From the NCBI GenBank assembly GCA_905178155.1, contig CAJINV010000009.1:2333373-2397372 (forward strand): 64,000 nucleotides of DNA, given 5' to 3'. Under the pieces are notes generated by a model. That model ran no database searches and was not told the origin of the DNA. It saw only the letters and a program-made list of their open reading frames with translations. This stretch comes from Amoebophrya sp. A120 (taxonomy: Eukaryota; Protista; Dinoflagellata). Of this stretch, positions 8,751 through 64,000 are shown in pieces (within the stretch, counting starts at the first letter, position 1; every line of letters begins with the position of its first letter). A program made the position numbers and the translations under genes.

Positions 8751-9349
8751 TCAGAAGACCACTTCAATCACGGGCAAGCTGGTAACTGCCATCACTGCAA
8801 TGCCGCCCATGAAGAGAAACGAAGCGGATTGAAACTGCTTGGAGGAAAATGCCGCTACCAAACCGTTGATCATTCCCGGCTCCGCACGTCGGGAGTCCTC
8901 GCTGTTGAAACTGGCAATGAAATATCAAATGCAAAAATGAAAATGTCTGGGTCTGGAAGAGTGCATCTTTGTCATGCTTGTCTCGCATGACTCTCAAATC
9001 TGTCATGCACGTTACCCAAGAGCCCCACTTTTCTGTCATGCAGAAACGCAGTCTATCATGCAGAGTAGGCAACACCTAGAAGCTCAGAAACTTGCCATGC
9101 TGAGCCAGCGCTTGTGGCCTCCTCATGATACGCCACCCAGCATCACAAGTTTCCAGACCCAGACATTTTTGCATTTGATATGAAACACAAGAAGCCAATG
9201 AATATCAACGCCATCCCGAGCAGAATCAAATAGGCCATCCGCCCCGACCGAAGAAAGTCCAAAATTTCCGTTCGCAACTTGGCCAAATACGCCAAAATGG
9301 CGAATATGGCATTGCGCGCGGCCGCGCCGAGACCACCGCCCCGAGCCAT
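8751..9349 (-). CDS. Small membrane protein with two hydrophobic segments, interrupted by an introner
   Basis: MARGGG...LILLGMALIFIGFLCF continues in frame as IASFNSEDSRRAEPG...FLFMGGIAVMAVTSLPVIEVVF* after removing 8923-9180 plus one TSD. Confidence 0.7.
8923..9180. mobile_element. Introner/MITE family B (TATCAAATG..ATGTCTGGGTCTGGAA ends), 258 bp
   Basis: TIRs tatcaaatgcaaaaatg..atgtctgggtctggaa and ttccagacccagacatttttgcatttgata. TSD TGAAA at 8918-8922 and 9181-9185. Confidence 0.93.
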
Positions 9350-25000: not shown

Positions 25001-27525
25001 CAGAGCGTCACACCGCGGACAGCTCGTCCCACAGCTGTTGCAGTCTGCGTCGAGGTCTCCCTGCATGAAGAACAAGTTTTCGTAGCTCATCTGGTCGCTC
25101 AGGTAGGTTTCCTTCTTGCCCTGGCCAAACTTGTCCACGACGCTGTCCCCCACCCGCACCAAGTAGCTCCCGATCAGCACCGGCGGCTGCGCCATCGTAA
25201 ACATGCTGCGCTCGTCGATCTCCGTTAACAGAACGCCGTGGCCGTTGCACCGCGGGTCCAGGTCGTAGATCGCGGGCGACCCGAACGCAATGCGGGCTTC
25301 CAGCGACGGGATGCGCACCTGGAACCGTGCGGGGACCTCCACGTACCCCGGGTCGTCTTTGGGCAGGCTGCTGATCTCCTGGTTGTGGTCGTACAGCCCG
25401 AGGTTTTGCAACACACGCCAGTAGGGGATCACGTAGTTCACGTTCTCCGCCCCGCCCGTCGCCTTGGCGAAGTTAATCCCAACGATATTGAGAGGAAAAA
25501 TCTCCCCTCCCCATATTGAAAAGGTATGTTTCCAAAAATTTGCGTTGCGCATTTGAGGTCACAAATCACATCTGTCTTGCAAGAAGACAAGGGCAGAAGC
25601 TTCCGCCCCATTATGAAGGCGATTTGTCATGCTGTTGGGCCCAAAGGGGGGACGTTTGCCATGCTGAAATACTAGACCCATACGCCCCTACCTAGCCCGG
25701 GGATCTGACCGCAATGCTTTCCTGCAATACAAATCTGATTTGTGTACTCAGATCCAGCATCAGAAGTTTCGTTTTGATATGGGGAGGGGGGATTTTTCCT
25801 TTTGATAAACGACCTTCTTCTCGCGCTCCAGCAACAAAGGACCGCCGCTGTTCCCCGGCGATATGGAAGCGTCAGGTTTGAAATCGTCAAAGTTGAAATA
25901 GTTTGTCATGCATAAAACGGATACCAGTTAGACCTACAGTTTGTAGTCGGTGCATGACAAGTTTTCCTGGCCTCTGAAGCAAGTCTGTCATGCGGTTTCG
26001 GGCAAGATGGCTGCTCCCTGTCATGCTAGTCAGCAGCCCAATGCTTGACCCTTACCAGCACTCGAATCTGCCTCCCTTGCGCCTTCAGCAATAGAGTCAG
26101 TCTCTGTGTCGCATTTTATGCATGACAAATCACTTCAACTTTGTCGATTTCAACTCTGACACATCCATAGGCGAGATCGGCGCCGTAGACTGGATACAGA
26201 TGTTTCCGTCCACCTCCTGGTTCCCCGCGATTTCGCCGCCCGAGAGCGTGGGCAGGTTCTGGCCCAAGGGGAATCCGACCGCCAGGACTTTCTCGCCCAT
26301 CGGCGGTGTCTTCGACACAAACTGCAGCGGGATCACCTCGATGCTGCCCTCGTCGAGCGCCTGTTTATTTATTGATTTCGTTGCGTGACCTGAGCCTGAC
26401 GCAAATCGTTGCGAGAAGAAACGCCGAGGCGTTCAGTTGTTGTATGTTCGTTGCTACGGTGGGACAAAATGAAAATTTTGCACACTCATACATAAATACT
26501 CGTCCACGTAAAAACAAAGGGACTGGCCATGGATAACTATCTCTCACATATGAGTATTGTTTGAACACAATGTTGACAAATACAAACTACTATACCGCCT
26601 TGAACTTCTCCGGCTTCTCGAACCGCAGCAACGCGATGTCAAACTGCGTGCAGATTTGCACGGTTTTTGCCGGGAAACTCTCCGACGAGAGCACCAAGAG
26701 CTGGAGTTCCACTTTCAGGGCGTTCGATACCACGTGCGCGTTCGTAATGATCAAGGGATCAAACGTATCGGACGCAAGGTTGGTCCGCACCAGAAAGCCG
26801 GAACCGAGGGACACCCCGCTCTCCGGCGGCTTCGAGGGCTGCAAGAAATCGTTCTGTGGAGACACCGACTTGATCCGGAAAACGGAATACTTCAATTCGT
26901 CGTTGTCAAAGCCAAACGTGTTGGCGTCCTGGGCGTGGCTGGTCCCCTGGTGCAGCAGTTTGACATCGGATTTTTGCTCCTGCTGCTGCTCGTCTGCGGA
27001 CGCAGATGAATCCTCATCAAACTGCAGCTCGGACTCGGGCGGCCCGGGACCAAGCAGGCTCCGCTTCCCCGCGACATGCTGTCGTGTCTCTCCCTGGATC
27101 AGTTTTCGCGCGATCGCGTCGCCGGTCGACCGGTGAATGGCGGCGTTCGTGTCGGCCCAGGAGTCATTCCGCGAATTGTCCAGAACCAGCTCGGAAATAT
27201 TTTTCGTGTCCTCTTGTTGTTGGCTGCTTGTTACGCTTTCTTCGGTGGAGGTCCGAATTTGAAGAAATAGCGTTGTTGTGGTGGGCAGCTGTTGGTCCAG
27301 TTTTTCCTCCGTGTCTTGGTCATCAGAGACAAAGGGAAGTTCCTCCTGTGGGAACAAGGATGTTGTCACGCCGTGACTCTCGGGCGCGGTTGTGCTTTGC
27401 AGCTCGAGGCGATTGGCATTCTGGGGAGGTCGGGGAGGGGGTCCGGAGAAGGCCAATATCGCCTCCGCAGACCATACTGCCGCCGAGAACGACCACGGCA
27501 CTCCTCCTCGAGCCGTCCTCACCAT
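22096..27525 (-). CDS. Secreted HtrA/Deg-like trypsin-fold serine protease with a long repetitive C-terminal extension, multi-exon
   Basis: Catalytic triad motifs GSGFLV..ITNAHVV, FDIALL and TAPISPGNSGGP (the last is rebuilt only after removing 25862-26169), plus AVGFPLG and VVGINFA. Joining the 3' exons (about 24660-24260, 24160-23830, 23699-22096) to the same gene is inference. Confidence 0.8.
25486..25807. mobile_element. Introner/MITE family C, 322 bp
   Basis: tattgagaggaaaaatctcccctccccatatt ... gatatggggaggggggatttttccttttgata. TSD AACGA at 25481-25485 and 25808-25812. Removal gives EKKVV-GINFAK. Confidence 0.93.
25862..26169. mobile_element. Introner/MITE family A, 308 bp
   Basis: tatggaagcgtcaggtttgaaatcg ... 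cgatttcaactctgacacatccata. TSD GGCGA at 25857-25861 and 26170-26174. Removal gives TAPISP-GNSGGP. Confidence 0.94.
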
Positions 27526-33690: not shown

Positions 33691-35678
33691 GGGTCTCGAA
33701 AGATAAAATATTAAGTTTTCTCTGTTGATATCAATTGATATCAAATGATATCAAAAGATATCACAGAGAAAGTTGAAAGCAAAACAGAGAAAAGTGTAAA
33801 CAAGAAACAGAAACATAAACAGAATGAGAAGAAACAAAAACAAACATAAGCAAAAACATAAAGGATACACATATAAAAACAAACAGAAATGGCTGCTTGC
33901 GCATCACAAACTGCCATTTCTGCACAGAAATACCTGTCGCGGCCTCTGAGTTTTCTCTGTGGCGAGAGGAGTTTTCTCTGTGATACAGAGAAAACTTCCC
34001 TCCCACAGAGAAAAGTCGACCTTTGCCGAGGGCCGGCATTTCTACTGGAAATCAGAGTAGAAACGCCAGGAGGTCTGGAATTCCTACCGAAAATCCAAGA
34101 AGAAGTGCCAGCCTGGCGGAAATCCAGGTAGAAAAAATGCCAGGAGGCCCCCCCCTGGCATTCCTACCGAAAGACCAGGTAGGTAGAAACGCCAGGAGGG
34201 CTGGCAATTCTACTGGAAATCAAGCTAGAAGCGCAAGCGCCATGGCATTCGTGCCAGAGATCGAAGATCCCTACAGGAAATTTAAGTAGAAATGCCAGCA
34301 GGCCTGGCATTCCTACAGGAAATCGAAGCAGAAATACCAGGAGGTCTGGCATTCCTACAGGGAATCCAGGCAGAAATACCACCTCAGCCGGCATTTCTAC
34401 TGGGAATCAAGGCAGAAATGCAAGGCCCAGCATTTCTACTGAGAGAGAATCAAGGTAGGCAGAAAGGCCCGAGCCGGCATCCTCGCCCGGAATCCAGGTA
34501 GAAATGCCTCGGCCGGCATTAGGGTACCCGCATCGCGCGCGCAGCGCGCGCGAAGAATTATTTCGCATGGCCTACGGCGACACAGGCAGCCGCTTTTGCT
34601 TCCTTTGAAGGGCGTGGGTGGGAGCGCGCATGGACATGGGACATGCGCGACAACGCAAATTGCTTCTAATCCTGGAAAGGATTAGACAGGCGCGCGGCGC
34701 GCGCCGGCAAAATTGCAAAACCCAACAGGAGCTCGAAGGAGAAACACTGTACCGGGCCCGGCATTCTTGAAAAGCTCCGCCCTAGCACAAACGGGCCTGC
34801 CCTACCCCTAAGCAACCAGAAACCATATTAACTCGCGCGCGCAGCGCGCGCGGAGTTTTTTCTCGGCTTCCGGCTCCGAATCCGGTTCCCAGACAGTTTT
34901 TGCCGTCCGCCACTTCCCGGGCGGGGCCGTAGCAACAAAAAGCGCGCGAACCTAAAAAAACTTTTGCAACCCAGACGAGAACGAGAAGCGCCCCAAATGG
35001 GAATCCGGGGGGCTTTTTCGTGTTTGATTTTTCTATCGGCAAGAAAAGCCAAGGCGGGGCGGGTAGGCCGGCCCGGCGGACGGAGGGCGGGCCCCAGCAG
35101 AAAAAGTTACCCGCCGAAACCGCGCGCGAAGCGCGCGGACTAATTTTTTCGGCCAATAGCGGCGATGTCCCGGCCCTGCACGCAGGACACACGCAGCCCG
35201 CCAGGAATTTGCGCACGCGCGGGCCTGCGCGCTCGCTGCCACACGCCAGCACGGCGCGCGCCCCCAATAGCCTGAAGGCGCCGCCGCGCGCTTTTGTGGT
35301 TGCACACCCCGGCGAAGCCTAGCGGCCCTGTGGATGCACGTGCGCCGCCTCGGCCAACCCTTCCACAGCACCACACGGACTAGCTTCATTCAAAGGCGTG
35401 AAGGAACTCCGCGCCTACGTATTGAAGCCGCAAAGCAGCCACGGATGCCGCTCGGCGCGGAGTTTTTCCAAAAACAATAAAACGCACGCCGGCCGACCGC
35501 GCGAGGGTAGGCGTGCAGAAGCTGCGCCAGTGTCTCGCGTGCAGGTTAGTTCTGCGACCATGTTCACCGCGGGAAGTTTTCTCTGCACGACGGAAGTTTT
35601 TTATGTGTTGCGAAGTTTTCTCTGTGCGGGTTGGACTTTTCTCTGTCGGTTGATTTTTTATTTTTTTTTTCTAGACCC
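33691..35678. mobile_element. Non-coding 1988-bp TIR element with a 6-bp TSD
   Basis: Ends GGGTCTCGAAAGATAAAATA and TATTTTTTTTTTCTAGACCC. TSD GTCAGG at 33685-33690 and 35679-35684. Subterminal TTTTCTCTG/CAGAGAAA motifs at both ends, an internal GGCATT(T/C)CTAC/GTAGAAATGCC array at about 34030-34520, and a GCGCGC-rich core. Confidence 0.75.
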
Positions 35679-43305: not shown

Positions 43306-43628
43306 TATCAAAGTGAAAAATCCCCCCTCCCCACATCGAAAAGGTATGTTTCTGAAAATTTGTGTTGCTGATTTGAGGTCACAAATCACGTCTGTCTTGC
43401 AAGAAGACAGGCGCAGAGGCTTCCGCACCATTATGGACGCGATTTGGCATGCTGTTGCGCCTAGGGGGCACCCGTTTGCAATGCTAAGCAACTAGACCTA
43501 TACGCCCCTACCTAGGCCGAGGATCTGGCTGCGATGCCTTACTGCAAGACAAATCCGATTTGTGTACCCAAATCCTGCATCACAGATTTCCATTTCGATA
43601 TGGGGAAGGGGGATTTTTCCTTTTGATA
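43306..43628. mobile_element. Introner/MITE family C, 323 bp, in non-coding sequence (probable UTR)
   Basis: tatcaaagtgaaaaatcccccctccccacatcg ... cgatatggggaagggggatttttccttttgata. TSD GCACT at 43301-43305 and 43629-43633. Interior is clearly similar to 25486-25807. Confidence 0.92.
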
Positions 43629-46713: not shown

Positions 46714-48049
46714 CTTGAGACAAGTACAACAGCGAGTAACAAGAACAACTGGAATTCGCGGCGCACTATGATTTTTATCCTCGAGATGGTCGTGGTTCTG
46801 TGATTACACGAGAAGTCGGATGAAGCTTTAGCTTTGGGATCAAAATTACGCCGTAGGTTTGCCAAGCGACTGCTCACTCTACAGATACAGATACAGAAAT
46901 TTCTTTCGCAGGGTGTGGTGGTCGGCGGTGGCCTCTTATCATGTGGCTCGATAGAACGGGGCAGGGAACGACGCAACGCTTTGCACCACGGGCACACGAA
47001 TCTGGGCAATCTTTGTTTGTCCAATCTCTAGAAATTTCTTTGTTTGTCCTACCTGCAACGAATTCTCGAGCCTATCCCCTCGACCACACAACACAAGCAT
47101 CACGACCACGACGTCTAAGTATGCGCTCGGTCGATGACGCTGAATGCAGATGAAACAGAGGAAGAAAAAACTCATGTAAAACCGTTTTCACACGAGGAGT
47201 CGCTTTCTCTCCTTCTTTGTCCACGAAAACGAAATCAGGTAGTTAGCTCTCTATTCGCGGTTCTTTCGACAATATATGCCTCCGTGTCCTAATTGCCCAT
47301 GAATTCATTGAAGAGCTTGTAGTAACTAACTGTCAGCACTGTGTGCTTTTCTGTTTTATTTTTCTTTTTTCTTGCGCATTTGCCATCTATGTTCATGTCC
47401 ATGAAAAATACACGGTAGCTTTGTTCAGTCAATGTCACTTGGTGACCAATAAATTCGTGACAAATCCTTCAAAATTTGACTGCTGGCCTCCTATTCCCAG
47501 TGTACATTCAGTCGTAAAAAGTAGCGTAGGGCAGATTCATTTTTTCAAAAACAATGCAAGAAACGACTTTGGAGGCCGCGACGGTCATTGTTGTTGATTC
47601 TGTAAATTCTTTGAATTTTTATCTGAAACTACTTAGCGAACCTGTGCAAGAAGAGTGAAAAAACTGATTCCCGAAACTTGGAACTGCTATCGCCATTGAG
47701 TCTAGTATTTGGTTTGAGTAAAAAGCTGTTCTTTTTCTGACTATAATTGGTTCAGTAATTTCCGTTGTTTGTTGAAGTTGTAACGAGTAAATTGACTTGT
47801 TCTTGTTGCAAAGTGTAGTATAGAAAGTAAAGTAGTTGTAAATCATAATTGCACAAAGCGTTGTGACTTTTTCAGTTTTAAATATTGGTAGTGATTTGGA
47901 CCAACTTTTTATCGGCCAAGAAAATCGAAAAAAAATCCGGTGGCGCGGCGAAACTGTAGAGGCCAGAGCCAACCAACCTAAGGGGGGCGATTCCCGATTC
48001 CCGAATTTTGCATTGCTCAAAATCGATTGTGCATTCCCGCAGACGCGGA

Positions 48050-48690
48050 TTGCACAAAATCGATTTTGCATGATTGCACGAAACCGAATCCCGCAAAATC
48101 GATTTTGCATTGCACAAAATCGATTTTGCATTGCACAAAATCGATTTTGCGTTGCACAAAACCGAAGCCCGATTTTGCATTGCACAAAATCGATTTTGCA
48201 TTGCACAAAACCGAATGCCGCAAAATCGATCTTGCATTGCACAAAATCGATTTTGCATTGCACAAAACCGAATGCCGCAAAATCGATCTTGCATTGCACA
48301 AAATCGATTTTGCATTGGACAAGATCGATTTTGCATTGCACAAAACCTAGTCCCGATTTTGCATTGCACAAAATAGATTTTGCATTCCCTCAGACGCGGA
48401 TTGCACAAAATCGATTTTGCATATGCACAAAACCGAATCCCGCAAAATCGATTTAGCATTGCACAAAATCGATTTTGCATTGCACAAAATCGATTTTGCA
48501 TTGCACAAAACCACATCACGGCTTTGCATTGCACAAAACCGAATCCCGCAAAATCGACTTTGCATTCCACAAAATCGATTTTGCATCGCACAGAACGCAG
48601 ATTGCACAAAATCGAATCACGGAGGCGCGGATTGCACAAAACCCCTCCTCCAGACGCGCAATCCCGCAGATTGCACAAAATCGATTTTCC
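48050..48690. repeat. 21-bp minisatellite TTGCACAAAATCGATTTTGCA
   Basis: Tandem and variant copies containing the palindrome AAAATCGATTTT; the same palindrome is dispersed across the whole 47885-50960 element. Confidence 0.92.
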
Positions 48691-51264: not shown

Positions 51265-53666
51265 TTAGGACGAAGCAGCATGGCCGCCCCCGGTCTCGGT
51301 GGACGACGATTTCGCCGGCTTGGGCACGCCGGCCGGAGAGGCACTCGACGACGCGGCAGTCTGGATGGTGGACACCACCGCCTTTTCGCTCTCCCCCGTG
51401 GCAGCTGGTTCTGGCTTCTTCTCCCCCTCGTCTGCCTTCGCAGCCTCCGTTTCCTTGCCACTATCCACCACATGCGAGGCGGGGACCACCGGCAACTGCA
51501 CGTCCTCCTTCTTTACGGCAGTCTGCTCCGGGGTTTTCTTTTTCTTGTACATGCCGATTTCCGTGGTGGCCCACGGCTTCAAGTAGCCGCCCGCGTCTTC
51601 CGCCTTCTCGAGCAGGTCTTTTACCTCCTCCTCCGATTCCGTACCCACGGTGGCCGCCGCGTCCTCCTGCAGCGCCGCATAGGCCGCGTCACTTGGGTAA
51701 TCGTCCTCGGTCATTCCCTCCTCCAACAGGAGCGGCGTGCCGGTGGCGTTACCCGACGCGTTACCCGCGGGTGCCGCCGTGGTGGGAGCGGCCGTGGCAG
51801 CCGCCGTCGTGGCGGCGGCTGTTGCGGCGGCCGTCGTTGGGGCGGCGGTGGTCGCGATTGTGGTCGTGGTGACGGTCGTGGTGGTGGTCGTTGTAGTGGT
51901 AGTAGTCGTGGTAGTGGTGGTTGTGGTGGTGGTCGTAGTAGTTGTGGAGGTGGTGGTCGAAGTAGTTGTGGTGGTCGAAGAGCCGCTGGCAGCCGCCAAG
52001 ATCGGACTCTGGGTCACACAGTCGGGATCGTTGCACACCTGGCATGTTGTAGTTGTGGACGAGAGCTTCCAGGCAACAAAGCTGTCGGCAGGGGATCCGG
52101 CCGTTCCCGCTCATTGCACCAAAAATTTCATATTACATTCATCCCTAGAGAGCAATGGACTCCTTTGTACTTCTTTTTTAGATCGTGTTGTATGCACAAG
52201 AAGAGAAAGAGTTTTACATGATGGCTAAACATCATTTTTTCATCTTCTACAGAAACAATCAAGCTTACGCCGTCTGGTTGGTTGTTTGCCTGCATGTTCA
52301 TAGCCGAGGTGACGTTGTTGACGATTTGCTGTGTGATAGCGGCGGGGTCCACCGTGGTTGCCGGAGGTGGTGCGTCGGTAGTTGCGGGCGGTGCGGCGGT
52401 GTATCAAATGTAAAAATGTCTGGCTCTGGAAGAATTCATGTTTGTCATGCTTGTCTGGCATGACTCTTAAATCTGTCATGCCCGTTACCCAAGAGCTCCG
52501 TTTTTCTGTGATGCAGTAGTAGTAGTAGTAGTAACCATTTGACTCCTGGCGGGTTGGCGTTAGAACAGATTTAGCCTCTGCCAATACCTGGGCGTTAGAA
52601 CAGATTTAGCCTCTGCCAATACCCCTAGGTGGATACCCGATCCACTTCCTAACTATCACCCGACCGCAACCGCAGAACCGCTATCGATTTCTTACGCGCA
52701 TGTGCGGTCAGTGGGCGCTATGTGTGGCAGAACCCCCTTACCATCCAAGCCCGCGAGCAAGGTGGAAATTCGGTGTGGCCTTGACGGGTTAGTCTTACAA
52801 ACTTGCTCGCGAGCTTACTTCTGTGGCCGGTTGTGCGCTAGTACGTAAACAGCGGGTCTATCGATCACGCCCGATGATCCTAACACGATGACGGGCAACC
52901 CCGAAGCGTACCCCTTTCAAGCACTTCAGCCGACCTTAGTCCGCGCACCTTTTTCGTGCGTTTGTCATGCAGAATAGAAGAAGTGCAGTTTGTCATGCAG
53001 AAGCGCGTCACTTTTTCGATGCAGAAGTGCAGTTTGTCATGCAGAATAGGAAACACCTAGGAGCTCAGAAACTTGTCATGCTGAGCCAGCATTTGTAGCC
53101 TCATCATGAGACGCCACCCAGCATCACAAGTTTCCAGACCCAGACATTTTTACATTTGATACGGTGGTGGTGTTGGCCATTTTCGCAATGGTGAGAATCT
53201 CGGTAATGGTGGCGGAAACCTTTTCGGCGATGGCCTCCGGTGGCCCGCTGTAACTCGCAATGTCCTGCAGTTTGTCCACCACGGCCATGCGCGTCATATC
53301 GTCCATGTTTCCAAACGCACCGGCCTGCACGGCGGCGGCAGCCGCCCCCGCGATGGTCTTCATCGTGGATGCCATGGACTGGGCCACCGCGTTCTGGGTC
53401 GCATTCGGATTGCTCGAGGCGGCAATGCCCTTGGCAATCTCCGATCCCAACCAGTCCTGCACAATCTCGAGGTCTGACTTACCGGCGTACGGATCCGGAA
53501 ACCCTTGCGAACTCCCGGTCACGGCCAGAGGATCCTAGTAGTATTTATGCCATGCATGGGTTGTCCAGCAGAAAAACATCAAGAAAAGCACCATCGTCGA
53601 GGTGACAGAATCGTTTATGACTGCGAGCAGGACTAAGCAGTACAAACAAGAAAGCAAGAGCGACAT
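51265..53666 (-). CDS. Secreted mucin-like Thr-rich protein, multi-exon
   Basis: Signal-like start MSLLLSCLYCLVLLAV. Removing 52402-53161 plus one TSD gives ANTTT-AAPPATTDAPP in frame. The last exon has a short Cys motif and a poly-Thr tract at about 51860-51980. Confidence 0.7.
52402..53161. mobile_element. Introner/MITE family B enlarged to 760 bp by a nested insertion
   Basis: tatcaaatgtaaaaatgtctggctctggaa ... ttccagacccagacatttttacatttgata. TSD CGGTG at 52397-52401 and 53162-53166. Both arms align by eye with 8923-9180. Confidence 0.92.
52517..52960 (-). mobile_element. Nested insertion of about 440 bp with a (TAC)n tail; possible 3' fragment of a non-LTR retroelement or SINE
   Basis: Absent from the sister copy at 8923-9180. 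(TAG)5 tract at 52517-52533, a 33-bp direct repeat at 52556-52588/52591-52623 and a 15-bp stem at 52747-52761/52802-52816. Confidence 0.55.
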
Positions 53667-54015: not shown

Positions 54016-54804
54016 TCACATCAGACAATCTTCTACCGGTGGTGGCCCTGCTGCCTGCAGCTCGATCGTCGCCTGTGACTCGAGCAACGAGAGATCATGG
54101 TCGTTGAGGTCGAGGTATGCATTGCAAATATGTCTGTGTCTGGAAGGATGTGAACTTGTGATGCGCATTTCACAACACACACAAATCTCTCATGCATAGG
54201 CAGTAAAAGGTGCCCACTTCCTGTCACTAAAAAGAGGGATTTGTAATGCGAGTTGGGCATTGCGGATGGTTCTCGATATCTGTGATGCTAGGGCTTCCAC
54301 GACAGACCTTTTGCGTCATGCAAAAACAGCATGACAAAAATCTGCACTCTTCCAGACCCAGACATATTTGCATTTGATACGAGGGCATCAAGCTGTGAAG
54401 ACGCAGCGTTATCGGACGACTCCGCTGGTTGTTGAGCCCCTGGCGTCAGCAGGAATGCTGTCGTGTATTTATTGTGTGTTTTTTCGACATCTGTCACGTT
54501 TTCTAGCTACGACCTCTTTGAGTAGTTATTTATGCCCGTCTTTCATTAATTTTGTTCTCGCTTGCGCTTTCTATCAATCTTCGTAGGCAGTGGTCGTATC
54601 CTCGGTGGTTTCTTTATGCGTCATGGAAACCTCCAGATGAAAACCGTTTAATATCTCTATGTGAATCAAGAAAACTAGGATGGTAGTTGCTGTACATGTT
54701 TCTATTGACTCCTTTCCATTGTCGATTCGGAGAGCTTCGGCTGTGTGTGCGGAGGACAGCGAGCAACCGAGCAGCACCCGCCTGAGCATTACTGCTTGCG
54801 GCAT
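54016..54804 (-). CDS. Small putative secreted protein interrupted by an introner
   Basis: Signal-like start MPQAVMLRRVLLGCSL. Removing 54116-54379 plus one TSD gives SSQLDAL-DLNDHDLSLLESQATIELQ...CLM*. The 5' exon junctions are unresolved. Confidence 0.5.
54116..54379. mobile_element. Introner/MITE family B, 264 bp
   Basis: tatgcattgcaaatatgtctgtgtctggaag ... cttccagacccagacatatttgcatttgata. TSD CGAGG at 54111-54115 and 54380-54384. Confidence 0.92.
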
Positions 54805-55743
54805 AGCGGTTGATGTGTAGTCGTACTCGAGGAAAGTCTGTGTGCAGTTCCGTAATCGGTGCGCGGGCCCGGGCACCGAGGGAGTGTCGATCCGCCTCCC
54901 TATCTATAGGTGGTTATTCGTACTATCGCAGTTTTGTCTTGAAAAGCCAACGGATAGCCCCTCTCTCCCGATGCTTTCCCTACCTCTAGAATGTTTCGTT
55001 TGGAAAAAATGCTATCAAAAAGGATGGACAAAAAATTCAGCCTCTGCTCATCCGACGACGGGGGTTGCAGTTGCATTCGTTCTCGTTGTAAATGCTTGAT
55101 AAATGAACTGTATAGATTGATCAGATCACATATTTTCCATGTCGCATGTGAGTGTGACGAGAGCAGCATAGCATACGTGATAGAGATATCTTAAAAAGTG
55201 GGAAAGAGAAACACAACAAACAGCGACAACAACACAGACGAAGAATATTTGTAAGAAAACGAGACCAGTGAAGACTGAAAACTGGTGTTCTACTGATATT
55301 TTTGCATAGACAACAATGTAGTTGGCGTCGGGTGCCTTTCTAATCGTCTGATGCAAATGCTCCAGATCTAAGTCTCTCATCGTTCATCTCGTCTCACAAC
55401 TCGACACACACTGGTCATGGAAGATGAAGGTTTGTTGCTTTGTAAATTTCTGCACCTGTCGCTATCACTATGACGAGTAATTTGTTGACGCTTTTAGTGT
55501 AGATAATTTGCATTTTTCTGATGAGTCAATCTCACTACGGGTGAACAACATTCAAGCGAGCGAGCGCAACCTGATTTGAAGCTTCTACTGACTTTGCCTT
55601 TGGGTGCCTCTTGGATCCAACCCAAATTTCAACTTTATACTCTATGAATGCTTAAAATATAATTTGCCCCCCCATAAACCATGTAATATTTACTAGAAAA
55701 CGGTTTCTACTCGATCTCGTTTCACCTTGCATTTGATCTTGAC

Positions 55744-56049
55744 ACACCGAGCATTTGAGTATGTGATAGTGGTTTGAAGTTGCATGATCCGAGCTTTGCA
55801 ATTGACCACACCGAGCTTTGCAATTGACTACACCGAGCTTCAACCAAAATCAAAAAGACAACGATTTGCCTTCAAGTAGAAACCGATTTGCCTTCAAGTA
55901 GAAACCGAATTACCTTGCAGAAAAACCGAATTACCTTCCAGAAAGCCGAGACTCGCCTTCAAGAAAACCACAACTTATTCGCGCAGTCAGCTTCACCGGG
56001 CTAACTGCGCGAATAGTTGTGGTTTATTACAGAACCACAACTATTCGCG
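55744..56049. repeat. Two adjacent iteron-like arrays of about 21-22 bp followed by a hairpin with 25-bp arms
   Basis: (ACA)CCGAGCTTTGCAATTGAC about 3-4 times; CGATTTGCCTTCAAGTAGAAAC twice plus about 3 variants; inverted arms AACCACAAC(T)TATTCGCGCAGT at 55966-56024, with a third arm copy at 56033-56049. Confidence 0.8.
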
Positions 56050-57217
56050 AACATCCACTATTGGCCATGAACAACGACATACAATAACGGCGAATGCGAC
56101 CGCGGATCGATCTGCGGCACTACTGTTGGAGAACAACATTATTCCATTTGTTTCCTCCTCCCTTCTACGTGTTCAATGTCAGCTGCTTCAACTTTGGTTC
56201 GAAAAAGTTTTTCGTAGTGCATGCTGCCGACCACGAGAAAAACAAATGCTCAGTGATGATGCTAAGTTCGCCTAACTTTCACATCATGTTTTTATCATGC
56301 GTCAATCTGAAATGCAGAGAGACACATGATCAACCGAAGGTGCATAACGTCCAACCTTTCTATATGTTCCTCCGCGGAGATGGAGTTCATCGTAGATGTG
56401 CAATGGACATGGAGTTCATCGTGTCTAGGAAACAATAGAAAGGTAAACCGATGGAGATGGTTTGGGACGGAGAGAAAAGAATGTTCCATACAAACACTGG
56501 CAGCGCCCAGCATACCAGTGTGAAGAGATAATATCACGATGCCCCTAAGTGCGGGGCGGACAGGTGAGTTGGGAAGCCTCTTCCCTTACAAAGAAAAATT
56601 ATTTTTTTTCAAATACGAGCTCGAAGTAGCAGTAAAAAATCAAGTAGCTACGAGAGTACGGATGTACTTTCGTAACTACCTGATACAAACAGAGATGGAC
56701 GAATAGATACGTCACAAAGTAAGACCTTGCATTTTCATAATGTAAAAATAAAATTATTTGTGTGGGAGGTGGGGCACAGATGTTGTCAAGATCGCACACC
56801 TCCCGAAAAGCAGCTGTAGGCGATGGCGATGGTGTTACATCACTCATCTATCAATTTCTATAGAAATATTTTAATTTCTAAATTCAAATTTTTTGTGAAG
56901 TCGACAGTAAAAAGCCCAGTCTCCAACACCCTGGAGATCTGGGTAAAATTGAAAGTGTTGACAACGAAAGTGATCCGCGAAGGATCACTTCCGACGTCAA
57001 ATAAAACGATGTTTTTTTTCTAAAACAAAAAATTAAAACTCTAATTTTGTAGTGCGAAACGACATCTGTGATTCCAAATTCCACTGATTGCACGGGAGCG
57101 CTATCAGTCGGAAAAATACCTCACAGTACAACCATAGAGCCCATGCTAGTTGATCAAGATCAAATATATGCAAGGACTGCGACAGCTATCGAAGAAAGAT
57201 TTTTTTTCAAATCACAT

Positions 57218-57928
57218 CTACTCCTCGTTCTCCTCGACCATCCAGAACTCATCCAAGGTGTTGCACCGGCTGCGCTTCGCGGGTTCCTCCACGACCTCAA
57301 AATCCTCCGTGGCAGCGCGCGGACGCAACGCTCCCGTGCGGGAGACCAACGGGTTGTTCACGAAGTCGACCACCGGGGGGACGTACGACGACGAAGCGGA
57401 GCTGCTGCTGCTCGCAGCGCGGGTAGAACCCGCCTTACCCTTCTTCTTGTCATTCGCGTCTTCGGCCTCGGAGGAGGTGAGCAGGTTCTTCTCCGGGTAC
57501 ATGGAGGTGAACGGGTTCTGTCCGATGTACTCGTCCATCGCGTTGATACCTTCGGCCACGGCCTTGCCGGCTTTGGCGGTAACCTTCTTCTCCTTCTTGG
57601 TCGGGTCTTCCTTGATCTCGGTCGGAAACCAGGTGGTGAAGGTGACGCCGCGGATCGTGAACGACTCCTTCGAGAAGCGGATCTGCTGGGCCGACTTGTT
57701 CGGCTTGAAGTCCATGGCGATCTCACGGGCAAACGCCGTCGCGTACTTGTGGGCCATCGGGGAGGTTTTCGAACGAAGTTCGATCGTCACCGGAATCTTG
57801 ATCGGAATCACCAACATTTTTTTCAAAACAGTGGCTTCCGCGATCCACGGCTCCCCGGACTTGAGGCTGGCGGCCGGAATGGAGGTGTTGTAGTAGTCGC
57901 GGTTCAAGTCCAAGCAGTCCGCCGGCAT
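57218..57928 (-). CDS. Intronless hypothetical protein, 236 aa
   Basis: ATG-to-stop ORF with strong GC3 bias between AT-rich flanks; no family recognised. Confidence 0.7.
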   Translation of the reverse strand: MPADCLDLNRDYYNTSIPAASLKSGEPWIAEATVLKKMLVIPIKIPVTIELRSKTSPMAHKYATAFAREIAMDFKPNKSAQQIRFSKESFTIRGVTFTTWFPTEIKEDPTKKEKKVTAKAGKAVAEGINAMDEYIGQNPFTSMYPEKNLLTSSEAEDANDKKKGKAGSTRAASSSSSASSSYVPPVVDFVNNPLVSRTGALRPRAATEDFEVVEEPAKRSRCNTLDEFWMVEENEE

Positions 57929-58279
57929 CTGTGGTTTTTAGTTTGTATGTGTGTGAAAATGATCGAAAAGAAGCCCTTGAAATGATAGTAGATAGATGTA
58001 GTTTCTTGCTGTTGTTTGGGGTAGCGACTTAGACTCAGCACCACGACACAACAGGCGAAGGGCGAAATAGTGGTAGTGCGAAGCGGTCCCATATAAACTG
58101 TTTCACTGGCATTTAAAATAGAGTCTGAGCCAAGATTGTCTTTAGTCAGTGCGAGCACAGCTTCGCAGCCGTAACGCACTGACTCTGAAAAGCGGGCCGC
58201 ATCATGGTAACGCTATAAAGCAACACTCTTTTGTGCATGAACAAGCTGCACTTCGCCCTGAAAGTGCTGAGTAAGAAAA

Positions 58280-60089
58280 CTATTGAGCCTTGAATTCGTG
58301 GAAGAGAGGCGGAAGACCCCATCTTCGGATTTCGACTGGCATCCACCTTACGAACAACCATTCACGAAATTCTGGCGGAGCAAGATCAAGACTCCAAACA
58401 AATTCAGGATGTACGTCCAGCTGGGTGATCTTCTGGAACAGGACCAAGGCGAACCAGCGGCCACTCTCCGCACCCTTCAACGCGTCCTGCAGGACCTTGA
58501 GGTTGTCGCTGTAGCGGTCTTCGATCTTCATCATCGCCTTGACATGGTTCTCCTTCATCTCGACGATCTGGCGGCTGGCCTCCGCGGTCTCATTGATGCT
58601 GATCTGTAGTGCAATTTTGCGGACTGCAATTGATCTGGAACATGAGTTTGAACTTGAAAAAAAATGCTGGCATTGATGCATAATAATAATGCAGCGCTGC
58701 AATACGAACTCATGCGCATGGTACTAAAATATATGAGTGCATAAAAATTTGCTACTGCGTGGTACTAAAGTATCTGACTGCATGGCGCCAAAGTATATGA
58801 CTGCAGTGTCGATGTTGAAGTTGTAGTTGACCTTTAAACTGAAGGAGTAGATGGTGTTGATATGTAGCAATAATACCTTGGCTTTCTTGCGCTCCTTCGC
58901 GGCCGCCTCGATGGACTTCGACAGCGCGTGTCCTTCCTCCTTCTGCTGGCGATTCAGGGCGGCTTTTTCTTCCTTGTAGCGGGTGGTGAGTTCTTTCATC
59001 GAGTCCTTCAAAGCTTTGACTTCCGGGCTGCTGGTCTTCCCTTTGATCTGGGCGCACTGACCGTCGAGCTTTCCGATCTTCGGATCCTTCTTATCCACAT
59101 CAATCTTCACCTGGGTTCCCTCGCCGAACGCCGGCAAAGAGGTATCAAACACGTCGGCAAACCGCACCACAATAGTCCCCGGCATCTCCCCGCAGATGAA
59201 GACGATGGTGAACTTGAACTGGCTCTCCAACTCTTTCAACACCGCGTTCTCTTCCTTCAGCTCCTTGCTGCGGGCACCGAAGCTCCAGTCGACGTTGCAG
59301 ATCAAAAACGCTTCAGCGGGGGTCTTGGCGCACACGTAGTCACCGACCTTGGCGCCCTTGGTCTGTGATATACGTTTACGTTTAGATTGCAGCGCCAGTT
59401 GTCGTTGATACTAAAACGACAGCTACATCAACATCAACATCATCATCAACATCTTCAAGCGGAATGGCGGGCGACATTCGTTTCACTCTTGGACGCGCAC
59501 GCGCGATCATCTTTATCTTTGAGTTTGACTTTGACGTCGACATTGATAAAGATGATAGTGCGAAACCGAAAACGAATTACATGATCTATGGCCGTGTCGC
59601 CTTTCGCTTCCGCTTGAAGTTGAAGCATTGCCCCATTGTTATTGTAAAAAAGAAATGTAGATAATGATAAAGATAATGATAAAGATATACCTCCCAGGTG
59701 ACAGCACCGCGATCGATCATCATGTCTTCGCCATCATCGGAGGAGCTCGACTCCGGGTCGTCCTGGGCCGCGGGCGCCTTGATCGCCAGCTGGGTCTTTT
59801 TCTTCTTTTCATCCTTTTCCTTATCTTCCTTCTTCTTCTTCGCAGGCTTAGAGGCGTTGCGGATCACTTCGCTGATGAGGTAGGCCAAAAATCTGTTCTT
59901 GTCCGAATCCGCAGGCTCCGAGCGGATATAATTATCGCGGACTAACGATTTTACCTCACGCATTTGTTGCAAACTCATTCCCACTCCTCCTTTGCCGAGC
60001 AACGTATGAAAGATCGTTGCCAGGGTCAAGCAACGATGCGACGGCTTCGCGTACTTCAAACCCAAGTTGAACAGGCGGGTCCTGTTCAT
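58280..60089 (-). CDS. Lys-rich coiled-coil hypothetical protein, three exons, about 402 aa
   Basis: Exons 60089-59691, 59362-58877 and 58603-58280 are each a multiple of three and bounded by GT-AG (GAG|GTATAT..ACAG|ACC; AAG|GTATTA..ACAG|ATC). The first junction is the least certain. Confidence 0.6.
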
Positions 60090-60772
60090 ATTTTTGAATT
60101 GAAATAAGAATAAATGTTTGCAGAACCAGAACGAGAGCCAGAAGATGAAGAAGAAGTGCAAGTAGTAGTAGGTGAGTACAGCTGAGTTGTTGACGCAGTA
60201 TGTATTCATATGACAACGAGAGTGCCCATCTTCAGTGCTAGAGTTCTCAAGGTGGAGGCGCGCGCCCTGCGGACGCAGAGTGCAACGCACACCGAGGCAC
60301 ATCACAAGACTTTCCTACAGCTCCTGATCACTAGCGTTCGTTACAGCCTCCTTGCGAAAATATTCAACAGCGAGTAGTGTTGTGTACTACATCGCAGCGT
60401 GGCCGGAGCCACGGTCGCAGCGTGGTAATAACTCCAATTCGCAAAAACTTCACAGGCCGCTACAACTACATTTAGAAATAGAAAATCTTGCTCTTAGCAT
60501 GCAAAGCAGAAGGCGATAGCACCAGCATTGAGCACATAAGTGCACGCATGTTTTCCGTACAAGTTAGCTCGCATTTTTTACCTAAGTAGAACGCTCACTT
60601 TGCGATTTTGTCTCCAACTCTACACGCCGAGTAGTGCATGTAGATGTAGTTTTCGACGACGAGGTAGTTGCGTATGTAGTACGAGTAGCTCTAAACGTCG
60701 ACGTGGTGAACGAAGGTGAAAGCAAAGGTGACCTTAGTACAAGATATACAGTAAATAGAAAACAAGATATAC

Positions 60773-63322
60773 TTGAACAGCGACACGTAGCGGGGGTCGT
60801 CGCGCGTGGTCCCCTTTTCCTTGATCACGGTGATCCAGTAGTCCGGCACCAGGCCAATCTCGCGCAGAATTTGATGGCAGACGTTGATCTCCATGACGGA
60901 CACGATGTTTTCGCACATGCGCTGTATTGTGTTTTATTTTTTTATCGTCCAAGAATTCTATTGCAGTCGAAGTCGTACTCGTAGTATGCGCGACACATGA
61001 ACACGCTCTGCTTATTTTCATTGACGATTTAGCATGCAACACCAACAGCAACTGCAACGAAAAATACAAATATAAATTTATCTACCTGGTAGAAGTCCAG
61101 GATGTTGATCTTCTCATGCGGGTGCTTGCGTTTGTAGTCCTCCAATTCGGCAGCAATCTGAAGTAGTGGCTGATGATCCGTTGTTTTATGCAATTCAATA
61201 TCACACCTGCGGCAGAATCTGAACTTGCCCTCAGCATCACATCTGCGTTTGAAATTCTAAAATCAGGACGGGACCCGGACCCGACCCTGGCCCAGACCCC
61301 AACAGATCAACATGGTGAAGTCCGCCCAGAAGCCAACGAAGTCCAAGTACCAGCGCACGGGTGGCAAAGGGCACTTTCGGAAACATACCGCGAAGAAGCA
61401 GTCGAACCGAAAGGCCGTGGCCATCTGCAGCTCCCCAAAACAGGCAGCACGAAAAGCGCCTGCAAAACAAGCACCACCGAAAGCGGTGGCGAAAAACAGT
61501 GCGAAAGATCTGGACTTAGATGATGGCGAGGAGAAGAGCGGCTCGCTGGCGATGCCAGACTGCATCGCGTTTGGGGATGCGCTTGCAGAGAGCAGTGGTC
61601 GAAAGCGGGACGCTGGCAATTTCTACAAACTTGGTTGGTTATTGGCCACTATGACCGGACGGCGCGGAATGGACATTCGCCTTCTTCAGCGCGGCGATCT
61701 GTCGCTAACGAGCGTCCGAGTGGGGAACTCGAAGCTCGCTATCAACAAGGGCGGCCGCGGGAAACTAAAAAACGTCCCGATAGATCCACTGCCCAAGACG
61801 AAAAAATTCCTGCAGAGCATGATAGACTACATGGACTCGGCCGGATATAAAAAAACCGACGCAGTGTTTAGCTTCGGCTACGAAGCGTTTGAAAAGAAGG
61901 CGCGGGAGGTGCGCAAGGACTTCGTGCCGAAACACAAGAAGTCGTGCCCCGCCCACATCATCACGTCCCACACACCAAGGCGCAGCTTGTGCACCCACCT
62001 ACATGCGGCCGGCACAAGCCTGCGCACGATCATGGCCATGACGGGGCACTGCAGCGTCGATACGCTGCATCGCTATAATGAAGGAGATTTTACATACCAG
62101 CGTCTTGCGGCGACAAAGGTGAAATGCTAGCACCGAGGCCGACGCGACCCTTTTACTGCGAACCCGCCCTCGACAGCGACGACGACAATGTCGACGGTCG
62201 CTGCGGACATGCAAGGCATAACAGATGTGACGCTGCGTGGGCGATCAGTCCACCTTGCTCGTGCGAGGTGGACTAAACGTTCAGTTTCACTTTCACACTC
62301 ATGCTGATATATGTGGTAGTATGCAAAACTTTTCAACCGCAAGAACAAGTCCAAGTACAAGCTCGAGCACAACAACAACTACGACTAGATGCACACTTAC
62401 AAAGCCAAAATTTAAAAAAATACCTGCTCCATGATTCCTTGCAGTTTTTCACAGAAGGCTGTTTTTAATGTCGTGTTTGCTTCGTTATCTAAACGAATCC
62501 ACAACGATAATAACGAAGGAAGTTTCGTCATTAAATCGTTGTGGAAAATGAAGGCCCTGGAGAGATTTTTATTTTTTGTTTTTCATTTGTGAAGAGCTAC
62601 ATGCGGATTTGTATGAGAGTAAGTTTGTAAATGTAATTGTATCTCGAGAGAAGGTATTGGTATGATGTCACACGAGACGAATGCAAGCATGAGTGGGTGA
62701 AAGTTGAAAATAATAATGGAGAGCATCATGAAGATAAACATAGACATGAGCATGGTTATTGAAGCACAAATTTTAATCACACAATGGCACCTGAATCCGA
62801 GTTCCTTCCAGCGATTCTCACCGTGGGACTCGAAGTACATCAATCCGGCTTGCCAACTATGATTGAGGCCGACCACTTCGAAAGCGTCGCCATTGTCCAC
62901 GAGGAACATGAATCTCCTCATTACATAATTCCCGCGACACATTTCGCGATATAAAAACTCGCGGTGGCGGGTCGACCTCAGCCGGTTAAACGACGACTCT
63001 TTGATCTTGGGCATCATGCTCTTGCTCACCAGCGCACCGGGCTCGTACTTGTCCGAACGGAAGCGATCGACGAACGTCATCATCTCGTTCTTGGAGACCT
63101 GAAGTTGTAGATTTTTTCTGAAATTACATGAGAAAAATCTGATAAGCATGATGAGTTCTACACTGTTGCATCACGAAAAACACATCCATACAGAAGGGAA
63201 AAAGTACTAATGTATCGCACCTGTCCCTGCTGCCAACGGCCAACGATCATCTTGACTTCCTCCTCAGTCGGCATGTTCAAGGCCTCAGCAAGTTGGCCCT
63301 GAACGGCGGCTCCGAACTGCAT
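60773..63322 (-). CDS. Multi-exon hypothetical protein whose third intron contains the recombinase gene; 3' end unresolved
   Basis: Exons 63322-63221, 63098-62791, 62556-62424, 61157-61086 and 60921-about 60773 are all GT-AG bounded and phase-compatible (0,2,0,0): ...WQQGQ|VSKNEMM...ELGFR|AFIFHND...LQGIMEQ|IAAELEDYK...LDFYQ|RMCENIV... Confidence 0.55.
61312..62130 (+). CDS. Tyrosine recombinase (XerC/D / phage-integrase-like catalytic domain) with a basic N-terminal tail, 272 aa, intronless
   Basis: Full catalytic set: R (LLATMTGRRGMDIRLL), K (AINKGG), HxxR (SHTPRRSLCTHL), H (AMTGH) and Y (DTLHRY). The box II region parallels XerD PHxLRHxFATHL..G.DLRxVQxLLGH....TQIY. Confidence 0.92.
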   Translation: MVKSAQKPTKSKYQRTGGKGHFRKHTAKKQSNRKAVAICSSPKQAARKAPAKQAPPKAVAKNSAKDLDLDDGEEKSGSLAMPDCIAFGDALAESSGRKRDAGNFYKLGWLLATMTGRRGMDIRLLQRGDLSLTSVRVGNSKLAINKGGRGKLKNVPIDPLPKTKKFLQSMIDYMDSAGYKKTDAVFSFGYEAFEKKAREVRKDFVPKHKKSCPAHIITSHTPRRSLCTHLHAAGTSLRTIMAMTGHCSVDTLHRYNEGDFTYQRLAATKVKC

Positions 63323-63465
63323 TTTCACACAAACTTCTGAAGAAAACTACGAAGAAACACTGTCGCTCCTACGGAATTTTTGCTGAAATATTGATGATTT
63401 GTCGCTGCGTTTGACATGAAATTCATGGAAAATTGACAGAAATTCACAACCTCCAAAATCCCCGC

Positions 63466-63596
63466 TCTGGAATAATTCAAGGATCTGAGCTCAAAAACCA
63501 TGGCTTTTCATGAAAATTCCAGGAATTCATCATTAATTTTGCGAATATTTGCCAAAAGTGATGGCTTTTGAGCTCAGATCATGGAATTATTCCAGA
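63466..63596. repeat. 43-bp imperfect inverted repeat upstream of the 63322 gene
   Basis: TCTGGAATAATTCAAGGATCTGAGCTCAAAAACCATGGCTTTT versus the reverse complement TCTGGAATAATTCCATGATCTGAGCTCAAAAGCCATCACTTTT (5 mismatches); no TSD. Confidence 0.8.
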
Positions 63597-64000
63597 ACGA
63601 TGATTTTCGGGATCATGCATTTCAAGCAAAAAATGATGAAAAGCGAAGCAAAAAGTAATGAAGTCGCGCGTAGATTTTTGCTGATCACAGGTTGAAACTT
63701 CATGTATTTGCGTTGTATTTTGCTGGAGGATCTACTGCGAATTCTCTTGGAAATGATGTCTGTTGAGGGGAAAGTTGGCATATGGGGGAACGGTTACAGT
63801 CTCCAGTCGAAGAGTACATGGAAGGGAGCTGGTGTATGGAAATGGATATCGCACAACGAAAATATCAGTGACCGAGTTGCGGAATGGATCGAATACGACC
63901 GAGGACAAAGTGCTTGACTACCTGAAGACGCCTCTTGTATTGCGCGCATTTTCTCACTCATCGCACTTCTCCGCTGCTACGCTTTTTCACTTTCTCCTCA

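Follow-up and report, generated by a model that had tools for sequence, protein, structure and literature searches.

A catalytic-domain-only tyrosine recombinase nested antisense in a predicted intron of Amoebophrya sp. A120, within a candidate multi-copy DNA unit

Eukaryotic DNA elements that bear a tyrosine recombinase (YR) are few, and Tec1, Tec2 and Tec3 of Euplotes are YR-bearing DNA elements in an alveolate. The available portion of PMC3212892, in which the Tec elements are named, reports all eukaryotic YRs as encoded by mobile elements and describes YR sites as arms of 11-13 bp around a short spacer. Cryptons insert via recombination at a short core (PMC9977147, available text), and a Crypton YR within a host intron, that of ATF7IP, is on record. 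The captains of Starships stand first in the element, according to the accessible part of PMC10104507. One strain of Amoebophrya carries thousands of repeated introns for which no transposase was found, as described in the available sections of PMC7789003, and the word "recombinase" is absent from the main text of that source as far as it was accessible. Here we analyse a stretch of 64,000 nt from Amoebophrya sp. A120 (hereafter the window), the right end of which contains a YR gene and a partner gene that we read, with a probability of about 50%, as a YR-mobilised DNA element of 10 kb or more with the enclosing gene, an orphan of 846 aa, as its cargo.

The window is eukaryotic, and a codon-model scan placed nearly all of its coding segments on the minus strand; this model had minus-strand genes as its training set, and the plus-strand segments mostly overlap such genes. 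Prokaryotic contamination was rejected, since the flanks of the recombinase have spliceosomal introns and its nearest named relatives are gene models of Amoebophrya AT5.2. No tRNA gene was found, and Rfam gave only below-threshold hairpin matches. Seven inverted-repeat pairs with TAT-N7-AAA ends, which match the introner ends given in section 11 of PMC7789003 (available text), mark introner-like inserts at 8923-9180, 18607-18927, 20295-20556, 25486-25807, 43306-43628, 52402-53161 and 54116-54379. The last of these had an enormous contig depth in the DNA run X1, and the only reads of the RNA runs X5-X7 that fell on the locus were 76 on a 30-nt introner end. Elsewhere in the window, a 21-bp satellite of about 20 copies with a near-palindromic unit spans 48049-48592, in a gene-poor stretch at 47.6-50.3 kb, and a gene-free stretch (33700-35600), which contains CG-rich palindromes as well as a 42-bp tandem array, is possibly another repeat element. 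An ORF at 13931-16723 with duplicated carrier repeats, extending upstream to about 17400, is presumably mitochondrial-carrier-like.

The original prediction of an 819-bp recombinase ORF proved to be real: the Pfam Phage_integrase match, at 38.3 bits, exceeds the curated cut-off of 27.1 bits, and the protein also matches PHROG integrases; against the NCBIfam Xer models it scores far under their cut-offs. The catalytic set is complete (6/6: R118, K141, H220, R223, H246 and Y255), and the top folds found with the predicted structure of the catalytic part (pLDDT 76) are the HP1 integrase catalytic domain, IntI4, XerA and Cre, so that the protein has both the R-K-H-R-H/W-Y set and the integrase catalytic fold of the tyrosine recombinase superfamily. 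N256 deviates from the relatives, which carry a hydrophobic residue at this position. A core-binding domain is absent, and only a basic, low-complexity N-terminal stretch (K or R at 19 of the first 66 residues) precedes the catalytic domain. Judged by sequence and predicted fold, the ORF is an intact gene for a Cre-like DNA recombinase.

In a profile search against 1.84 billion representatives, 11 proteins reached E 1e-10 or lower and 7 reached 1e-30 or lower. The family includes nine AT5.2 gene models, namely g1758, g2071, g1514, g19144, g19149, g9703, g8986, g17899 and g15954, with 25-50% identity to the window YR over the full length, and one family cluster contains an MMETSP transcript of unstated taxon. 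Pfam detected Phage_integrase in 15 of 17 family members, a weak FLYWCH in one, and nothing further; GCR1_C, DUF3504, NDC10-type and DUF3435 (the domains of Cryptons and Starships) and the Pfam domains of DIRS elements were found in none of the 17 members scanned. For the tree, the first 80 and the last 3 of the 160 protein identifiers were considered, and the 76 proteins with 140 aa or more around the catalytic end were retained; 24 of its 76 rows form one starred clade (99/97) separate from prokaryotic-type integrases. This clade unites the YR family with six more distant short YRs, the midpoint root leaving its origin unpolarised. The family is catalytic-domain-only and expanded in Amoebophrya. 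Two metagenome scans for the neighbourhoods of relatives confirmed 0 of 376 and 0 of 240 stretches. Viral scans gave weak matches only, none of them a family member (L001, a phage integrase adjoining a terminase-like gene; L002, 38% over 40 aa), and the single match of a genome scan, bacterial and at 28% (L003), was not a family member either.

The gene predicted around the YR is larger than the original prediction saw, with nine minus-strand exons from 63322 to 57218 that form one stop-free chain (Table 1) and eight GT-AG introns of 122, 234, 1266, 164, 691, 328, 273 and 486 nt. The modelled frame had the best codon score of the three in all nine exons and a positive score in eight, exon 3 being negative (-8.9) yet best among its frames, and an unguided coding scan placed segments over six of the nine, several with nearly identical borders. 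Orientation is that of the host genes, and codon use is host-like. The protein is soluble by hydropathy and has lysine-rich patches; a nuclear, DNA-related role is a guess. A PIP-box-like pattern near its C-terminus, in exon 9, is a lead only. Searches for relatives were blank for exon 2 among proteins of 107-342 aa and for exon 7 among proteins of 285-2000 aa, and Pfam, PHROGs and Atlas gave nothing convincing for the partner protein, the PHROG matches of exon 9 being weak (E 0.02-0.1); the single-sequence fold of this exon reached pLDDT 40.

Table 1. Positions of the predicted and inferred features (numbering of the window)
Feature	Positions	Strand	Basis
Inferred multi-copy unit, runs past window end	55655..64000		depth and divergence, run X1
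Likely left end of unit: depth step, tandem arrays, nested palindromes	55655..56049		depth, repeats
Predicted exon 9, with stop	57218..57928	-	sequence, codon score
Predicted exon 8	58415..58603	-	sequence, codon score
Predicted exon 7	58877..59362	-	sequence, codon score
Predicted exon 6	59691..60081	-	sequence, codon score
Predicted exon 5	60773..60921	-	sequence, codon score
Predicted exon 4	61086..61157	-	codon score, splice sites
Predicted GT-AG intron 3 around YR, 1,266 nt	61158..62423	-	sequence
Inverted-repeat left arm, degenerate 27 bp (20/27 matches; inner 14 nt 13/14)	61219..61245		repeat comparison
Tyrosine recombinase, single exon, 272 aa, 819 nt including stop	61312..62130	+	ORF, Pfam, fold, catalytic residues
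Inverted-repeat right arm	62222..62248		repeat comparison
Predicted exon 3, weak codon score, contains hairpin 62498-62545	62424..62556	-	codon score, splice sites
Predicted exon 2	62791..63098	-	sequence, codon score
Predicted exon 1, ATG at 63322	63221..63322	-	sequence, codon score

Several other sequence features accompany this gene. The hairpin inside exon 3, the exon of atypical codon use, is strong (z -5.4) and has a 7-nt motif in common with the left-end palindromes, and an imperfect palindrome with 92-nt arms (63439-63623), for which Rfam gave below-threshold miRNA-hairpin matches only, lies directly upstream of exon 1. Introns 2 and 5-8 (within 57929-63220) are open in the frame of the upstream exon for 27-69 codons, longer than AT-rich introns predict. 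A CCACAAC motif common to the left-end palindromes and exon 3 (16 occurrences window-wide vs 8.6 expected) was dismissed as a signal, as it derives from the palindromes themselves.

As originally predicted, the minus-strand exons flanking the YR join in frame at canonical GT-AG sites (62424/62423 and 61158/61157), in phase 0 at both ends, with a CAG/GT donor whose first intron base is 62423 and a CAG acceptor whose last base is 61158. The intron had been called several times longer than its neighbours, which holds for the three nearest (122, 234 and 164 nt) but not for the gene as a whole, in which the longest of the others (691, 328, 273 and 486 nt) is about half its length; the share of the intron filled by the ORF, put at "most", is corrected to 65%. 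With splice matrices derived from the other seven introns of the gene, a small and partly circular training set, the donor ranked first of 103 GT sites in 61190-62556 and the acceptor third of 66 AG sites. The codon score of exon 4 beats all 4,452 intron windows of 24 codons, and the amphipathic helix faces on the two sides of the join differ by 12 degrees, a fit equalled at two of eight spacer lengths. A 12-nt micro-exon suggested at 61218-61207 is disfavoured by its weak acceptor (1.4), an intron of 49 nt and helix faces 52 degrees apart. On this sequence evidence, the YR very probably lies nested antisense in a predicted intron of the orphan gene.

Inside the intron, the 27-bp inverted arms bound a GC-rich cassette of 1,030 bp that holds the YR ORF. 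The inverted repeat was found post hoc, and its match was reached by 0.6-0.9% of 2,000 shuffles (1.2-2.6% if either orientation is allowed) and by four of 212 real control pairs. GC content is 0.55 and 0.63 inside the arms and 0.43 and 0.41 in the outer intron pieces, and the intron minus the cassette would measure 236 bp, which is ordinary for the genus (medians of 208-247 bp in the available part of the published Amoebophrya data). The YR has no flanking direct repeat (P about 0.5), and no target duplication was seen around the cassette by eye. The pattern fits an old insertion into an ordinary intron. The arms, the GC step and the leftover intron give some support to the insertion half of the earlier suggestion that a small autonomous recombinase unit had entered an intron. 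Its autonomy is not borne out in X1, where YR bins of 76-80 compare with a contig depth of 76.4, where exon 3, the YR and exon 4 lie on one contig, and where no extra near-identical copies of the cassette were found.

A second, outer layer emerged from the same run. X1 contigs left of 55,672 had depths of 46.6 and 48.1 with 0 of 1,460 bases differing from the window, vs depths of 69-76 and 32 of 7,893 differing bases (0.4%; Fisher P 0.006) in contigs from 56,018 to beyond 64,000. The depth of this unit is about 1.5 times that of the host in this one run, in which contig depth does not equal copy number and which may be the window's own source. The contigs break at 58929, about 62600 and about 63080 within the unit, and the last, of 2,663 nt, has only 889 nt within the window. 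The likely left end has two 22-bp tandem arrays (55789-55840 and 55862-55944) and a perfect 17-bp inverted repeat around an 8-nt spacer (56008-56049); among the window's 37 perfect short-loop repeats it is the longest, and it is no more than a candidate YR site. Hairpin density showed no clear excess in the unit (0.72 vs 0.56 per kb elsewhere), and the window's TAT-N7-AAA pairs all lie before 54.4 kb, with none in the unit vs 1.05 expected (not significant).

The differences between X1 and the window are transitions in 23 of the 31 listed, and those in coding sequence are non-synonymous in eight of nine cases, which fits neutrality (P 0.21-0.39) and not an omega of 0.2 (P at most 0.006). No large gap interrupts the X1 contig that runs through exon 3, the YR and exon 4, and this contig encodes the family-typical residue at position 256. 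At 61526-61529 it also shows a perfect tandem duplication of 4 bp, which resembles an excision footprint; this shifts the YR frame and puts an upstream ATG in frame with the catalytic domain, where the models of some relatives start. Read most simply, these observations suggest that a unit of 10 kb or more exists in two or more near-identical copies, all of which have kept the YR in place and are drifting; as contig depth is not copy number, this is no more than suggestive. What multiplied recently thus seems to be this larger unit, which the original prediction overlooked.

Under the YR-element reading, an ordinary intron of 236 bp would have taken up a YR cassette of 1 kb bounded by short inverted ends, and the larger unit, cassette included, would then have multiplied as one piece. 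In a mechanism modelled on Cryptons and Starships, the YR may bind palindromic sites at the unit ends, cut and rejoin at a short core, and insert the unit elsewhere, a transposase not being needed. Splicing would remove the cassette from the partner RNA, making the nesting tolerated, and the copies seen would be ageing insertions that collect neutral mutations. The identity of the YR, the expansion of its family, the depth and divergence in X1, the end-like repeats at the depth step and the signs of a cassette all argue for this reading. Mobility is inferred, as no right end, empty site or second locus was seen. Against this reading, the same depth and divergence would be expected from a plain segmental duplication, the YR, unlike first-placed Starship captains, is located about 5.6 kb inward of the likely left end, and its protein has the reduced N-terminus and the N256 described above. 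The host-strand orientation and host-like codons of the partner gene also count against the reading, as a host gene would show both. They agree with the main alternative, which we hold possible at well under even odds: a host gene that evolves fast encodes the 846-aa protein, a solitary YR cassette of about 1 kb entered its third intron some time ago, and the extra copy is an unrelated segmental duplication. The inverted repeat, the GC step and the 236-bp remainder are as expected there, about 60% of Amoebophrya proteins are without functional assignment in the published account (available part), and the Crypton YR of ATF7IP provides a precedent. However, X1 contained no additional near-identical cassettes, and purifying selection on the long gene is not evident in the differences between copies. 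All eight introns are canonical, albeit in a model built on GT-AG, vs about two thirds non-canonical introns published for two sequenced strains (available text); the deficit of introner pairs in the unit points the same way without reaching significance.

The nesting itself would disappear if the YR separated two minus-strand genes, of which the upstream one ended three codons beyond 62423 and the other began at exon 4 or later, for instance by trans-splicing with translation from the Met of exon 5. Read-through beyond the donor does meet a stop after three codons, the shortest such run among the eight introns, exon 3 scores negative, the acceptor at 61158 is middling, and spliced-leader trans-splicing is known in the genus from the published text as far as available. 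We nevertheless consider this arrangement improbable, since the best of 103 donors lies in phase directly before that stop, an event of roughly 1-2% by chance in our estimate, and since exon 4 is strongly coding in a frame with no ATG within 33 open codons upstream. ATG-led first exons that do not enclose the YR number three among 47 candidates, all three with negative scores, and the helix register is preserved over the join. An origin of the unit as the remnant of an endogenous polinton-like virus, or of another YR-integrating DNA virus, is very unlikely: protist polinton-like viruses of 15-30 kb, including that of the dinoflagellate Oxyrrhis, have YRs (accessible part of the published record) and the right part of the unit is outside the window, but the 8.3 kb inside it gave no capsid, ATPase or polymerase match, the partner gene has eight spliceosomal introns, and viral contigs contained no relatives of exon 9, exon 2 or the YR family.

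Should the large unit prove mobile, it would add to alveolates a cargo-carrying YR element of unusual layout, with its engine antisense in an intron of the cargo, in a genome in which one-way blocks contain 98% of genes. A more speculative extension, to which we give little credence, is that the 1-kb cassette acts as a switch that can be inverted: the YR would flip its own gene via the inverted arms, from quiet antisense to alignment with the one-way gene block and back. This would set in motion large recombinase elements with cargo, a new group in parasitic dinoflagellates, and leave the spliced partner gene unharmed, the same family being a candidate mobiliser of some Amoebophrya intronic repeats. 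A mobile unit would also offer a concrete candidate enzyme for mobilising the repeated introns of the published strain, and a compact catalytic YR of 180 aa with candidate sites would be easy to assay. We found no published account of this family in Amoebophrya, a prior record being possible as most subscription papers and Repbase were outside the search. Among the rows listed in 12 of the 14 supplements of PMC12130899, the sole Crypton introner family is from Tetraparma. The YR family and the layout of the large unit appear to be undescribed, whereas a YR inside an intron already has precedent.

Compared with known systems, the cassette resembles the Amoebophrya introners of PMC7789003, from the same genus, and the Crypton-type introners of PMC12130899 (both in their available parts) in being an inverted-repeat-bounded insert in a gene. 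Introners have the inverted repeat at the intron ends and a boundary direct repeat of 3-5 nt, whereas the cassette arms lie 61 and 175 nt from the ends of a canonical intron, show no TAT-N7-AAA end and no flanking direct repeat, and enclose a coding gene. DIRS, Ngaro and VIPER retrotransposons also encode a YR, but no gag, reverse transcriptase or RNase H match was found in the 8.3 kb of the unit within the window, and the hallmarks of polinton-like viruses, a major capsid protein and a packaging ATPase, gave no match in 55.7-64 kb, the right part of the unit being outside the window. The Tec elements are likewise YR elements of alveolates; here, no DDE transposase match was found among the predicted exons. 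As in Cryptons, the YR is the sole recognisable mobility enzyme, with no reverse transcriptase in the part of the unit inside the window, and there is a partner gene comparable to the second gene that some Cryptons carry. Unlike CryptonF and animal Cryptons, which have GCR1_C and DUF3504 domains, respectively, none of the 17 family members scanned gave a Pfam match to them, and the YR is short, intronless and catalytic-only, resembling Xer and phage integrases, in a unit of at least 10 kb; Cryptons have terminal direct repeats of 4-6 bp and no long terminal inverted repeats, features of ends of which the right one here falls outside the window. The Starships of fungi are large cargo-carrying units predicted to move by a YR, as proposed here, but have a DUF3435 captain as their first gene, whereas this YR is without DUF3435, internal and nested in an intron of a non-fungal host. 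By the features tested, the proposed element belongs to neither Cryptons nor Starships.
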